This document shows, piece by piece, positions 577-41,092 of a stretch of 41,906 bases of DNA. Both the position numbers and the translations under genes were made by a program. The stretch lies in the sequence record MN850624.1, one strand, 5' to 3'. Source of the stretch: Escherichia phage usur. Below the pieces are notes generated by a model. The model saw only the letters and a program-made list of their open reading frames with translations, did not search any database and was not told the DNA's origin. Position 1 is the stretch's first letter, and every line of letters starts with the position of its first letter.

Positions 577-959
577 TACATCCCCACAATCGTTGTGATA
601 AAGGACTGGAGCGCCGTGAGGTCGCCAGCCTTGACCGCAAGATAGATACCGCTAACGAGTGAAGCGGTCAGGAGACACCACTTGACGGCGTGAGCCGCGT
701 AAGAGAACAGCTTACCGATGTGGCTCATAGTCTTTTGAATGTCCTGAATTTGCTCGACGACACGGAGCTGCTGCTGAATCTCCAGCCACCGGGAGTCGTT
801 CTCCGATAGCTTGGCCAGCATAGCAGCATCACCTTTCTCAAGGTTGGCGATTTGAATCTCGTGTTTGTCGAGGCGAGTTTCTACGGATTGCATACGAGCC
901 TCCACAGCGCCCATACGCGAGTGGATGTTAGGAGTTGGCTCCTTCTTTGCTTCCGTCAT
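576..959 (-). CDS. membrane protein with N-terminal coiled-coil and C-terminal TM helix; possible holin/antiholin
   Basis: 127 aa ORF; heptad-like polar N-terminus, hydrophobic stretch 'VKWCLLTASLVSGIYLAV' near the C-terminus. Sits between the lipoprotein gene and the endolysin. True start may be the internal Met (MGAVEARMQ...). Confidence 0.35.
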   Translation of the reverse strand: MTEAKKEPTPNIHSRMGAVEARMQSVETRLDKHEIQIANLEKGDAAMLAKLSENDSRWLEIQQQLRVVEQIQDIQKTMSHIGKLFSYAAHAVKWCLLTASLVSGIYLAVKAGDLTALQSFITTIVGM

Positions 960-34359: not shown

Positions 34360-34796
34360 TCGTTATCCCAGTCCGGTATGTACTGAATCTTCTTCTTCAT
34401 CTTCACGCTGGCTACAACTTGTAGCACACGGACAGTACCACCGTGGCGCTCTGCCAGACGCTCAGCTTCATCCCGCGCTTCACGTTCAGTGATGTGCTCA
34501 ATCTTCGGCGGCGTGCTGCCACCCTCAAGCAGACACATGAACCGACCGCGCTTCTGCGCCGGGGTACTGACCAGACTGGTGTTGTCCTCCAGCCAATCAG
34601 ATTTGTAGTGGCTGATATCCGGCTGCGCATTCAAGCGCTCACCAATCCAGCTCACGATGTAACGAGTCTCCCCGCTGCGCTCCCACGCTCGGCGGTCAGG
34701 GTTAACCCATGCGATGATACCCAGCTTACCCGACCGGGTGCCAGTGCCATCGTCGCCTACGATTTCATCCCCGACTTTGTACTTTGGCTTTACCAT
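34356..34796 (-). CDS. hypothetical protein
   Basis: 146 aa, tightly packed in the operon. Confidence 0.5.
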   Translation of the reverse strand: MVKPKYKVGDEIVGDDGTGTRSGKLGIIAWVNPDRRAWERSGETRYIVSWIGERLNAQPDISHYKSDWLEDNTSLVSTPAQKRGRFMCLLEGGSTPPKIEHITEREARDEAERLAERHGGTVRVLQVVASVKMKKKIQYIPDWDNE

Positions 34797-34990
34797 TTAA
34801 TCCACCCCTTACTCCAGCCAATGTCAATGCACTTGGACATGCCAACTGCGCCAACAACAAAGCCCAGCAGCGTACCAATTACAGAGGTAAGCTGTTCTCC
34901 AATGTAAGGCTGAATAAGATAGGCAACACCTACCCACAACGCGCCCCACAATATAACGACGACTACGAATAACATTAATACTCGGAACAT
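34790..34990 (-). CDS. small membrane protein (two TM helices)
   Basis: 66 aa, 'MFRVLMLFVVVVILWGALWVGVAYLI...'; strong RBS GGAGGAAAT before the ATG; first gene after the promoter-like element at 35008-35025. Confidence 0.5.
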   Translation of the reverse strand: MFRVLMLFVVVVILWGALWVGVAYLIQPYIGEQLTSVIGTLLGFVVGAVGMSKCIDIGWSKGWIKW

Positions 34991-36787: not shown

Positions 36788-36813
36788 ATCTACCTCCATC
36801 GTTTGATAATGAC

Positions 36814-36838
36814 ACTGCCCCCGGCACGCAGGGGCAGT
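36814..36838 (-). promoter_or_regulatory. GC-rich stem-loop in early intergenic region
   Basis: Perfect 8-bp stem ACTGCCCC/GGGGCAGT with 9-nt loop, between two early genes and ~20 nt upstream of an RBS. Confidence 0.35.
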
Positions 36839-36844
36839 AGCTTA

Positions 36845-37090: not shown

Positions 37091-37148
37091 GCTTGCCTCT
37101 CATTTATTTGGTAGTGAAACAGCCCCTGCAAGCAGAGGCTGTAGATTA

Positions 37149-37408: not shown

Positions 37409-37723
37409 TCACGTTAGGTTGATGTTATGACCGTTGATTGAGAGAGTCACGATGGTGGTCACGCCATCATGCTCCAGCTTTTCTTTCAGGTGTGGCAGCA
37501 CATCCTCACACTCACCAACGTAGGCCAGTGTGCTGACAGTGCCGCCTTTGCGTAGGTCAATGACGCAAGCAGAGTACACCTGTCCATCAGGTGCGCCCAG
37601 CGGTACGTCATACGCATCCAAATGCACCTTCTCCACAGTGGCTGCCAGTGCCACATGCACGGTGCTGAGATACAGGGTGGCCAGCATCAACAGCACGAAC
37701 AGATATCCTTTGCTTACCTTCAT
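37409..37723 (-). CDS. secreted/periplasmic early protein (Sec signal peptide)
   Basis: N-terminus 'MKVSKGYLFVLLMLATLYLSTVHVALAAT' has n-, h- and c-regions with an A-L-A cleavage motif; mature part ~75 aa with two Cys. Confidence 0.55.
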   Translation of the reverse strand: MKVSKGYLFVLLMLATLYLSTVHVALAATVEKVHLDAYDVPLGAPDGQVYSACVIDLRKGGTVSTLAYVGECEDVLPHLKEKLEHDGVTTIVTLSINGHNINLT

Positions 37724-38065: not shown

Positions 38066-38129
38066 GCTCCCCTCTCGTCAATGGATTTCAAAAAGGCTAC
38101 CCGCTGGACAGCCTTGAGTAATCCACTGC

Positions 38130-38303: not shown

Positions 38304-38456
38304 TGCCCAGCGACGGCGCTTCGTCTACCTTATCACCAGCGATGAATGCCAGACCGCCGTTGCTCAGGGAATACACGTTGATTGTAGCCATGGTAAATCT
38401 CCAGTTAGGTTGGGCATGATTGCCGCACTGCCCCGTCGCAACGAGGCAGTAAGGTA

Positions 38457-38792: not shown

Positions 38793-38865
38793 AGGATTAA
38801 TCCTCAGATTGGAATAAGGCAGTATTGCCACGCTGCACCCTCGCAAGGATGCAGCAGGACAACGC

Positions 38866-39150: not shown

Positions 39151-39225
39151 GGATGATACTCCGTAATTGTTGGGGCAGAATTGCCATAAAGCCAGCGCCT
39201 TGACACTGGCTTGAGTCAATCCCGC

Positions 39226-39753
39226 TTACGCAGCTTTCAGCTTGCGCAGGCCGTCCAGCACGTTCTGAGGCACGACAACCTTGTTCGCATCCTCATCGCG
39301 CCCTTCATGGCGCAGCTCGTTCGCCTTGTTCATTGCCTTTTCAGCTTTGGCAATCAGCTTTTCGAGCGCATCTTGCAGGTCGAAGCCATCAAAGGCCGCT
39401 TCTGGCTTGCAAGTCCACCACATCGTGGCTTTCGCCTTGTCGATGTTCTCTTTGATGAAGTCAGCACCCTTCCAGCCAACGAAGCCGGACTTGCCATCTT
39501 CATGCTCACCCACAATCAGGCCGCCGAACTGGACGAACCAGTCAACCAGTGCCTTACCACGGACGCCATCACCCAGTTGGTGAGTGAACGACTCAGCACG
39601 AGTGTAGTCGCCGTGATGGTAAGCGTGCAGGATAATACCGACCGCAACGTTCTGAATATCGTTACGGAGTGAGTGCGCCTTTTTGACAGTCGCTTCGATA
39701 GCTTTGTCCAGCGCCGCAGCATCTTTGAATGCAGTATATTTAACAGTAGTCAT
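39226..39753 (-). CDS. hypothetical early protein
   Basis: 175 aa; RBS GAGGTG before the ATG. Confidence 0.55.
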   Translation of the reverse strand: MTTVKYTAFKDAAALDKAIEATVKKAHSLRNDIQNVAVGIILHAYHHGDYTRAESFTHQLGDGVRGKALVDWFVQFGGLIVGEHEDGKSGFVGWKGADFIKENIDKAKATMWWTCKPEAAFDGFDLQDALEKLIAKAEKAMNKANELRHEGRDEDANKVVVPQNVLDGLRKLKAA

Positions 39754-39975
39754 GATACACCTCGTCGGGTTGTTGGTTGGTTACTTCACAATGCGCCTCG
39801 CAAGACGCATTAGGCAGTCACCATAATTTGGGACGAGTCAACCAGTAAATCCACAAGCCTGCAAAGACAAACCAGAACAACGCTACCAGTAAGTCCCACA
39901 TATCAGGCTCGCTTAGACAGGCGCTGGTCAATCAGCCAGCACGCCGCCGCTATCACACAGAGTGCAGTGAACATA

Positions 39976-40368
39976 TTACGCCTCCACTACCCAAAATTGC
40001 TCACCATCGTAAGTCCAAGCAGTGAACTGCCCGGCTTCCATCTCCGCTTCTGTCTTGCTGACAAACTTGCCAGCAGGCTTGCCCGGATATGGTGAATCCA
40101 TGAAGATTGCATCATTGTCATCGATCACTACCATGATGCAGTCCTGTTCAAAGGCTTTACAGAACAGCTTAACAGCCTGTCTGATTTCGTAGATTCCATC
40201 GACAGGAAAGACCATGCTTAACTCATACGCATTGTCGAATTTGCCTGTCAGTGTGACCGGAATCACTCCGAACATATCCTGCACCGTTCGCAGTGCCTTG
40301 CAATGAAGCGCCAGATTAACACACTCAGCATTGTTCTGGCGGTATGCGCTTGCATAGATACGGTACAT
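39976..40368 (-). CDS. hypothetical protein, first early gene
   Basis: 130 aa; RBS GGAGAAA 6 nt before ATG 40368; first ORF downstream of the tandem sigma70-like promoters. Confidence 0.55.
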   Translation of the reverse strand: MYRIYASAYRQNNAECVNLALHCKALRTVQDMFGVIPVTLTGKFDNAYELSMVFPVDGIYEIRQAVKLFCKAFEQDCIMVVIDDNDAIFMDSPYPGKPAGKFVSKTEAEMEAGQFTAWTYDGEQFWVVEA

Positions 40369-40846: not shown

Positions 40847-40875
40847 ATTACAACACAGTGTATTCAGCTTGTCAA
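40847..40875 (-). promoter_or_regulatory. sigma70-like early promoter P1
   Basis: On the minus strand: TTGACA (40875-40870), 17-nt spacer, TGTAAT (40852-40847), preceded by TGc (extended -10). Confidence 0.5.
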
Positions 40876-40926
40876 CTACTTTTTACTACTGACTGTCAGG
40901 CTTGCTGCCCTGTCAATCTGGAGCGT

Positions 40927-40955
40927 ATTACAGCATACTCGTTTCATCCTGTCAA
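40927..40955 (-). promoter_or_regulatory. sigma70-like early promoter P2
   Basis: Minus strand: TTGACA (40955-40950), 17-nt spacer, TGcTGTAAT (-10 at 40932-40927). Confidence 0.5.
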
Positions 40956-41063
40956 CCGATTTAATCAGCGCCCGTTCTGAGATGAATAAACCGTACCAGT
41001 TTGCCTGCGTGTGTTTTAACGTCTTTATCAATGACTGTTTAGCTTGCTGGCTGACGTGGAAGC

Positions 41064-41092
41064 ATTACAGCATAGTGAGCTTGCCTTGTCAA
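41064..41092 (-). promoter_or_regulatory. sigma70-like early promoter P3
   Basis: Minus strand: TTGACA (41092-41087), 17-nt spacer, TGcTGTAAT (-10 at 41069-41064). Confidence 0.5.

Follow-up and report, generated by a model that had tools for sequence, protein, structure and literature searches.

We propose, as the reading that we on balance favor, that the interval between the first two early genes of Escherichia phage usur contains two overlooked small protein-coding genes on the first early mRNA, whose products would modulate a protein of the host inner membrane. With high confidence, we regard the first of them, ORF A, as a genuine gene of the Bonnellvirus early operon that encodes a well-translated small membrane protein. 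The second, ORF B, occurs in one group of close relatives, probably as a coupled accessory gene. Both ORFs precede a strongly conserved RNA hairpin, and neither is annotated in any deposited record that we examined.

Results

Early region and layout of the interval

The window, that is, the whole stretch of 41,906 nt that we analyzed (record MN850624.1), shares ~99% identity with Escherichia phages forsur and glasur and 84–96% with 17 further records. All relatives with a genus assignment belong to Bonnellvirus (J8-65-like Autographiviridae). The genes of the window lie on the minus strand, and upstream of the first one are three exact matches to TTGACA-N17-TGTAAT, all on that strand, for which 0.08 matches are expected by chance (Table 1). 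By analogy with the A1–A3 promoters of T7 and T3, we regard these sites as putative promoters. The SAM lyase gene, whose counterparts are labeled SAMase in the records of relatives, is the first ORF downstream of the three sites, which makes it reasonable to call it the first early gene, as a preliminary description of this DNA had done. Its 3′ end reads GTG GAG GCG TAA (TAA at 39978–39976), and an exact look-up of the window’s SAM lyase in the contig index returned no match. The second early gene, gp2, is annotated as hypothetical in relatives.

Table 1 Features of the early region of the window.
Feature	Position	Strand	Description
Three tandem host-type promoter-like sites (TTGACA-N17-TGTAAT)	40847..41092 (exact matches 40847-40875, 40927-40955, 41064-41092)	−	Upstream of the first gene
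SAM lyase (anti-restriction SAMase), 130 aa	39976..40368	−	First early gene; PF23780, E = 1.9e-26; phrog_2226
Shine-Dalgarno sequence GGAGG of ORF A	39981..39985	−	Within the last SAM-lyase codons, 6 nt before the ATG
ORF A, 23 codons, MFTALCVIAAACWLIDQRLSKRA	39903..39974 (ATG 39974, TGA 39903)	−	Starts after a single T following the SAM-lyase TAA
ORF B, 27 codons, MWDLLVALFWFVFAGLWIYWLTRPKLW	39818..39901 (ATG 39901, TGA 39818)	−	Starts after a single T following the ORF A stop (UGAUAUG)
Two-tier hairpin	39778..39823	−	7-bp lower stem, internal loop, 10-bp upper stem, UGCG loop
gp2, 175 aa	39226..39753 (ATG 39753)	−	Second early gene; phrog_1448, E = 3e-52, function unknown

The preliminary description had placed two ORFs of 23 and 27 codons between these genes, in an interval of 220 nt, each starting 1 nt after the preceding stop codon. 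When read on the minus strand, both ORFs are present with exactly the peptides quoted, although the interval from SAM lyase to gp2 measures 222 nt. The single-nucleotide spacing recurs at both junctions, TAA-T-ATG between SAM lyase and ORF A and TGA-T-ATG between ORF A and ORF B, so that the stop–start arrangement of coupled cistrons is found twice in succession; the ORF A/ORF B junction is invariant in all seven phages and contigs that carry ORF B. From the ORF B stop to the start of gp2 are 64 nt. No gene is annotated in the interval in any GenBank relative examined. Of 200,000 shuffled versions of the 222-nt interval, 4.5% had a single coupled ORF, and 203 (0.1%) had two ORFs of at least 20 codons each, coupled in tandem. 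The tandem coupled layout exceeds chance expectation.

The translational coupling that this layout had suggested is supported in part. The spacing is real, and ORF B plausibly depends on it, but ORF A does not need it: its Shine-Dalgarno (SD) sequence pairs with the anti-SD sequence at −9.3 kcal/mol, compared with −6.4 kcal/mol for SAM lyase, −7.2 kcal/mol for gp2 and −4.5 kcal/mol for ORF B, and even −8 kcal/mol is reached by only 2% of the window’s ATGs. Since the SD of ORF A is among the strongest in the window, coupling is not required for its translation. Termination–reinitiation coupling is established in E. coli, and because the SD of ORF B is weak, this ORF is likely translated by reinitiation at UGAUAUG.

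Conservation of ORF A as a protein

Searches with tblastn found ORF A, unannotated, in 18 of the 19 GenBank bonnellvirus records at 77–100% identity, and it also occurs in metagenomic relatives. Nineteen distinct nucleotide versions were extracted from GenBank, IMG/VR, JGI and Logan/ENA contigs, with the consensus MF[TA][AVI][LAF]C[VI][IVL]AA[AGL]CW[LVA][IVF]DQ[RY]L[SNP][KR]R[RK]?[GA]; in addition, there is a 20-aa version, from contig L048 (MFTIACIIAAACWLINLRIG). Six residues are invariant (A4, C6, A9, A10, C12 and W13), replacements are conservative (I/V/L, K/R, A/G), and the only indels, of 3 and 12 nt, are in frame. The pooled NG86 dN/dS is ~0.20 (63 pairs; pairwise values ~0.1–0.3), compared with 0.14 for SAM lyase in the same genomes, and the minimum numbers of changes at codon positions 1, 2 and 3 are 15, 11 and 30 (p = 0.005). 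Conservation of the reading frame had been named beforehand as a point on which the proposal could fall, and for ORF A it is clear in the dN/dS, in the third-position bias and in the in-frame indels. These patterns make it very probable that ORF A is a true gene.

The junction between SAM lyase and ORF A exists in at least three architectures: GGAGGcgTAAtATG; gagTAAGGAGcatgacyATG; and ggtGGAGTAAcgattATG or ggtGGAGTAAaccATG. Every junction type retains the ATG and an SD at 5–7 nt, which in the types other than that of the window reads AAGGAG or AAGGGG, or GGUGGAG. The ATG is found 1, 3, 5 or 11 nt past the SAM-lyase stop among relatives, and the frame of ORF A relative to SAM lyase varies accordingly (0, +1, +2); this variation excludes a SAM lyase–ORF A fusion made by frameshifting or readthrough. 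We also rejected ORF A as the signal peptide of a lipoprotein, as it has no basic n-region and its lipobox is not conserved (the residues preceding C12 are AAA, AAL or AAG, and those preceding C6 are TAL, AAL or TIA). As a separate observation, the end of the SAM lyase gene (GUAGUGGA) can pair with ORF A codons 2–4 in a local stem that, by eye, is lost in Lidtsur-type sequences.

ORF A has been deleted independently at least three times. In HHU8, a clean deletion runs from the SAM-lyase stop to the last ORF A codons; two contigs (L046 and L047) have a frame-shifting 41-nt deletion inside ORF A; and in a further contig (L049) only the last few ORF A bases are left. In LIMEzero and in a distant relative whose gp2 is 65% identical (L020), SAM lyase is followed directly by the hairpin, without ORF A. 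As these natural deletion variants show, phages can grow without ORF A. ORF A is a conserved but non-essential gene, and any function it has is conditional. Early accessory genes typically combine conservation and dispensability in this way.

ORF B on a lineage-restricted segment

ORF B was found in seven carriers only: the window, forsur, glasur, ROV85, LF82-23 and the Logan contigs L036 and L045. Compared with the other phages, these carry ~84 extra nt, a length that matches the ORF, and within the lower hairpin stem the ORF B stop replaces that of ORF A. Among the seven carriers, ORF B varies at three sites, and all three changes are synonymous (P = 0.008–0.02), including a first-position change from TTG to CTG; in the other open frame across this DNA, the same three changes alter amino acids. 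Conservation of the frame thus has weak support for ORF B, in which every change is synonymous but three sites vary in all. A local comparison of DNA and of protein gave scores no better than shuffles, and we rejected the idea that ORF B is a diverged duplicate of ORF A.

The non-coding DNA adjacent to ORF B, namely the hairpin and the 5′UTR, is 100% identical among the carriers. In LF82-23, SAM lyase is 90% and gp2 85% identical, compared with 100% for hairpin and 5′UTR, so that the segment looks like a recently exchanged module. The conservation of ORF B may thus reflect recent shared ancestry and not selection.

This bears on an alternative that we consider rather unlikely but take seriously, namely that ORF A is a real gene and ORF B a recently inserted or de novo frame that is not (yet) functional. 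Only seven closely related modules with three variable sites are at hand, the neighboring non-coding DNA is as well conserved as the ORF, the SD is weak, and no relative was found in 1.84 billion representative proteins or in viral, genome, plasmid and E. coli collections. A non-functional frame, however, would not be expected to accumulate synonymous changes only (3/3, P about 0.01), to consist of inserted DNA of just the size of one ORF with its ATG 1 nt past the ORF A stop, or to encode a peptide of extreme hydrophobicity with a positive-inside pattern; moreover, the module has been retained in phages of E. coli K-12, E. coli LF82 and Pantoea origin. We therefore retain ORF B as a probable coupled accessory gene.

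A covarying hairpin at the last stop codon

The two-tier hairpin between the micro-ORFs and gp2 has a fold energy of −21.6 kcal/mol and includes the ORF B stop codon in its lower stem. Across eight alleles, it keeps one architecture of 18 pairs, with 98.6% of cells paired and compensatory changes in six of the 18 pairs, values that were reached by none of 500 shuffles and by no slid register. For example, ATAGCG/CGCTAT is replaced by AATGCG/CGCATT, and a change of the stop from UGA to UAA is balanced on the 3′ arm (contig L025). Whichever ORF comes last before the hairpin, be it ORF B, ORF A or, in L020 and LIMEzero, SAM lyase, its stop codon is always part of the lower stem. The same hairpin follows SAM lyase in LIMEzero, a clearly homologous one is present in Era103-like phages, and GC-rich hairpins of a comparable kind come after nearly all early genes of the window.

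An Rfam search returned no family match. The hairpin has the architecture of a T7-like early RNase III site, being irregular, interrupted by an internal loop, covarying and intercistronic, with 18 pairs, and the annotation of T3 places the RNase III site R0.5 at exactly the corresponding point behind the SAMase gene. By this analogy, we interpret the hairpin as a putative RNase III-type processing or 3′-stabilizing element that ends the first early mRNA unit. We rejected an attenuator or terminator, since the hairpin is followed by GUGAAGUAACC and not by a U-run, and no terminator-like site was called. Lying upstream of the conserved hairpin, both ORF A and ORF B belong to the first early mRNA unit.

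The position of the last stop codon within the lower stem, whichever ORF supplies it, and the almost complete filling of the gap by the ORFs would suit a role in cis, in which the act of translation, and not the peptides, matters: it would hold ribosomes on the mRNA as far as the hairpin and so prevent Rho-dependent polarity over a long untranslated stretch, or termination within the lower stem would tune hairpin processing or gp2 translation. We consider this improbable. Such a role does not require conservation of amino acids, yet ORF A has six invariant residues and a dN/dS of 0.2; phages without micro-ORFs have a short gap (75 nt in HHU8, 69 nt in L049 and 55 nt in L020), so no filler is needed; and the hairpin, which lacks a U-tract, is not an attenuator.

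We give very little credence to the view that both are chance ORFs in a non-coding spacer whose conserved component is RNA, i.e., the processing hairpin and surrounding structure. It is true that the interval holds a strongly conserved, covarying hairpin, that ORF B may hitch-hike in carriers with identical hairpin and UTR, and that no GenBank record annotates either ORF. The hairpin, however, is located downstream of both ORFs without overlapping ORF A, and an RNA constraint leaves unexplained the third-position bias, the low dN/dS, the in-frame indels and the retained SD and ATG of ORF A. Neither the rarity of the tandem coupled layout among shuffles nor the fact that the three ORF B changes are synonymous in the proposed frame only fits chance ORFs.

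Predicted membrane peptides

Among the 150 ATG-initiated ORFs of 20–40 codons in the six frames of the window, ORF B and ORF A rank first and second in hydrophobicity, and on the Hessa scale none but ORF B has a 19-residue insertion energy below zero. Its aromatic-rich core of 18–19 residues (5 W, 4 F, 1 Y; 19-residue sum −1.9 kcal/mol) is flanked by D3 on the N-terminal and R23/K25 on the C-terminal side. With 18 hydrophobic residues, these flanks and a negative insertion energy, ORF B agrees well with its earlier description as a single transmembrane (TM) helix. ORF A has a hydrophobic N-terminus of 15 residues (Hessa sum −2.0 kcal/mol) and then the basic tail DQRLSKRA; 15 residues are short for a full TM span, and the 17- and 19-residue windows are positive in insertion energy. 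Both peptides are hydrophobic towards the N-terminus and basic at the C-terminus, for which the established positive-inside rule predicts an N-out/C-in orientation; they would accordingly be single-helix peptides of the inner membrane.

No match beyond bonnellviruses was obtained with the concatenated ORF A and ORF B peptides against 5.8 billion proteins, with degenerate DNA patterns (ORF B and the ORF A motif) in viral and genome contigs, by tblastn of phages and plasmids or by blastn of E. coli genomes. A 37-aa TTG-extended version of ORF B had no relative among 1.84 billion representative proteins, and profile searches of Pfam, PHROGs and NCBIfam with ORF A and ORF B gave no match (E up to 10 or 1). 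The missing profile matches argue against the known type I toxin families. On the plus strand near 39750–40000, a crude consensus scan, which also missed the three TGTAAT sites, found no promoter-like site.

The preliminary description had suggested that the peptides insert into the membrane as toxins or as inhibitors of host division or transport, and either may apply. An acutely lethal toxin seems unlikely for a strongly expressed product of the first minutes. Type I toxins (Hok, Ldr, Ibs, TisB, ShoB) are short hydrophobic peptides with a basic end; ORF A and ORF B differ from them in having neither a family match nor, in the crude promoter scan, a sign of an antisense RNA, in the strong SD of ORF A and in their place in the early operon of a lytic phage. 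That they are membrane-damaging toxins of the type I or holin kind, which kill or permeabilize the host, is highly doubtful: their small size, strong hydrophobicity and basic C-termini give them a superficial likeness to the Ldr/Ibs/TisB type, but the profile libraries without a match include type I toxin families, the crude scan of the opposite strand gave no antisense promoter-like site, a lethal membrane lesion caused this early, from the first early mRNA and a strong SD, would harm the phage itself, and the lysis genes are located elsewhere, in an endolysin/spanin cluster.

A parallel in Era103-like phages

The Era103-like phages belong to a different subfamily, the Molineuxvirinae, and their SAM lyase is ~27% identical to that of the window. 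In Era103, phiEa100 and phiEa1H, an unannotated 27-aa ORF (MIKNTGFAWAIAFSGSFWLAVVYYGFN) starts 5 nt past the SAM-lyase stop and ends in the lower stem of the homologous two-tier hairpin. The 27-aa peptide is located ~100 nt further from the SAM lyase gene in S2, where it is likewise unannotated, and in Tapenade, VyarbaL and Nifs112; in Nifs112 and Tapenade, both of which were read, an interposed hydrophilic ORF of 32 aa overlaps its start (ATGATTAA). Nine of the ten codon differences between the Era103 and Tapenade peptides are synonymous, and dN/dS values of 0.02–0.07 indicate strong purifying selection.

The Era103-type peptide resembles ORF A and ORF B in its slot, its coupling to the preceding ORF and its hydrophobicity, and is 27 aa long and aromatic-rich. 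It differs in that its polar end is N-terminal (MIKNTG), compared with C-terminal in ORF A and ORF B, and homology was rejected, as neither ORF has sequence similarity to it. Going by these sequences, the slot between the SAM-lyase stop and the hairpin is filled by unrelated hydrophobic micro-ORFs in two distant lineages.

Discussion

In the explanation that we favor, host RNA polymerase would start at the tandem early promoters and produce one mRNA unit consisting of SAM lyase, ORF A, ORF B and the hairpin. The hairpin would mark the 3′ end of this unit, as an RNase III site or stabilizer by analogy with R0.5 of T7 and T3. ORF A would be translated from its own strong SD embedded in the end of the SAM lyase gene. 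Translation of ORF B would rely mainly on ribosomes that, having terminated at the UGA of ORF A, begin again 1 nt further on. Within Bonnellvirus, ORF A would be the conserved core gene of the slot, and ORF B an accessory, moron-like cassette on a recombining module of one sub-lineage. Translation of the two ORFs, membrane insertion of the peptides and cleavage of the hairpin by RNase III are what we infer from these features.

In the first minutes of infection, both peptides would bind and modulate a larger protein of the host inner membrane, with a component of division, transport or defense as the candidate target, and they would serve as accessory fitness factors without being essential. 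This putative mode of action is modeled on MgtS, MgtR and the effect of T7 gp0.4 on FtsZ; as no homologue, family or partner was found, it is an analogy only. A more far-reaching idea, to which we assign a low probability, is that the hydrophobic micro-proteins and SAM lyase form a functional pair, made in fixed proportion from one mRNA, and do not share a slot through the coincidence of an insertion hot-spot. If this were true, the membrane-embedded partner could block a membrane-bound SAM-dependent defense arm or SAM/methionine homeostasis, and the peptides would represent a new class of phage anti-defense micro-proteins of at most 30 aa that is invisible to current annotation.

ORF A would be a genus-wide phage protein of 20–24 residues that is missing from deposited annotations as well as from Pfam, PHROGs and NCBIfam. 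To our knowledge, ORFs shorter than about 90 nt are passed over by common gene callers, and this would account for the gap. As it is encoded on the very first early mRNA with a ribosome binding site stronger than those of its neighbors, ORF A is likely an abundant product of the first minutes of infection, the period that decides host takeover and counter-defense. The system lends itself to experiments: E. coli K-12 and relatives serve as hosts, natural deletion variants exist, and a 23-aa peptide can be synthesized. The recurrence of unrelated hydrophobic micro-ORFs in the corresponding slot of Era103-like phages suggests a hidden layer of membrane-directed micro-proteins in T7-like early operons. 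Small membrane proteins of phages and bacteria are well known, and what we describe is a new small-protein family (ORF A) and an orphan cassette (ORF B) without a new principle. The finding can serve annotation and offers a starting point for experiments.

Comparison with known systems

T7 has the same layout, with the anti-restriction gene 0.3 followed by the coupled small gene 0.4 (TAATG; here TAATATG), and the gene 0.4 stop is located at the base of the R0.5 hairpin region, like the last micro-ORF stop here. The first gene differs, encoding Ocr in T7 and SAM lyase in the window, and T7 gp0.4, which acts on host FtsZ (PMC4944311, PMC13423816), is hydrophilic, unlike ORF A and ORF B. Closer in character is the product of T7 gene 0.5, which is hydrophobic and has a basic C-terminus; at 47 aa, it is about twice the size of the peptides described here, and its gene follows the hairpin, whereas ORF A and ORF B precede it. 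Homology of either ORF to gp0.5 was rejected, as local alignments were no better than shuffles (p = 0.12–0.5).

Among bacterial proteins, MgtS (31 aa) and MgtR (30 aa) are small membrane proteins that act by binding larger membrane proteins (PMC12648545). They have no homology to ORF A or ORF B, which are phage-encoded and predicted to be expressed in infection only. The likeness is one of form: MgtS, MgtR and the two phage peptides share the size range, a single hydrophobic helix and charges at one end.

Mosaicism in the region of ORF A and ORF B

Comparison of the window with LF82-23 and ROV85 revealed a mosaic in which 39754-39975 differs in its similarity from its flanks. Among carriers of the 27-aa micro-ORF ORF B, the 3' end of the 23-aa ORF A, ORF B itself, the hairpin and the gp2 5'UTR share 96-100% identity, while the flanks are less alike in LF82-23 and ROV85 (SAM lyase 90%, gp2 71-85%). 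In many pairs, moreover, ORF A exceeded the SAM lyase gene severalfold in dS (0.81 vs 0.04 for the window and phage RZ4). This contrast in identity, together with the high dS of ORF A, suggests that recombination breakpoints lie where SAM lyase and ORF A meet. ORF A was deleted independently at least three times (in HHU8, in the related sequences L046/L047 and in L049), with one clean, one 41-nt frameshifting and one near-complete deletion, and the downstream hairpin is intact in every case.

Hairpins and small ORFs in related phages

LIMEzero shares the Bonnellvirus hairpin, with the same upper-stem allele as the window (GCCTAATGCGTCCTACGGGGCGCATTGTGA), and there it follows the SAM lyase gene directly, without an intervening micro-ORF. 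Era103-like phages harbor an unannotated hydrophobic 27-aa micro-ORF (MIKNTGFAWAIAFSGSFW[LM]AVVYY[GS]FN; dN/dS = 0.02-0.07) directly 3' of SAM lyase, and the stop codon of this micro-ORF falls within the lower stem of a hairpin that is homologous to its Bonnellvirus counterpart. A hydrophilic 32-aa ORF lies between SAM lyase and the micro-ORF in Nifs112 and Tapenade and overlaps the start of the latter; in S2 and VyarbaL, tblastn likewise placed the 27-aa peptide ~100 nt further downstream.

Two IMG/VR contigs (L023 and L024), whose gp2-like gene is 45% identical, encode a 28-aa ORF whose N-terminus is hydrophobic (MLAVAWFIY[VI]SCSFN[FV]KPWPKGTYHVRS), possibly a further coupled micro-ORF from a distant relative. 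The window itself contains further small membrane-type ORFs in its early or middle region (see table).

Coordinates of small ORFs, hairpins and promoter-like sites
Feature	Sequence	Position	Strand	Remark
Hairpin as in Bonnellvirus	LIMEzero NC_015585	1300-1345		directly 3' of SAM lyase
22-aa ORF3, annotated (MIGAVPNSWWGLIPPLPVNDSK)	LIMEzero NC_015585	1897-1965		overlaps ORF2 stop
27-aa micro-ORF	Era103 NC_009014	1308-1391		
27-aa micro-ORF	Nifs112	651-734		
27-aa micro-ORF	Tapenade	651-734		
28-aa ORF	L023 and L024	1302-1388 (each)		starts 2 nt past stop of 76-aa ORF; upstream of gp2 homologue
66-aa membrane-type ORF (MFRVLMLFVVVVILWGALWVGVAYLIQPYI...)	window	34790-34990	-	
104-aa membrane-type ORF	window	37409-37723	-	signal-peptide-like N-terminus MKVSKGYLFVLLMLATLYLSTVHVALAATV...
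Intergenic hairpins (examples)	window	~39160-39215, ~38800-38860, ~38400-38450, ~38070-38125, ~37095-37140, ~36800-36840	-	
TTGACA-N17-TGTAAT sites	window	40847-40875, 40927-40955, 41064-41092	-	

Probable early promoters and intercistronic hairpins

Three exact matches to the motif TTGACA-N17-TGTAAT (0.08 expected by chance) are located within the 958-nt non-coding leader upstream of SAM lyase. A generic promoter scan did not pick up these sites, as their -10 hexamer has a G in its second position. They are likely tandem early promoters for the host RNA polymerase, comparable to A1-A3 of T7.

Between 36800 and 39225 on the minus strand, the intergenic gaps contain a stable GC-rich hairpin 3' of nearly every early gene, with a 10-11-bp stem, often a UUGCGA-type loop and frequently a lower stem. 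These elements appear to form a family of processing or stabilizing hairpins between cistrons, of the kind represented by the RNase III sites of T7.
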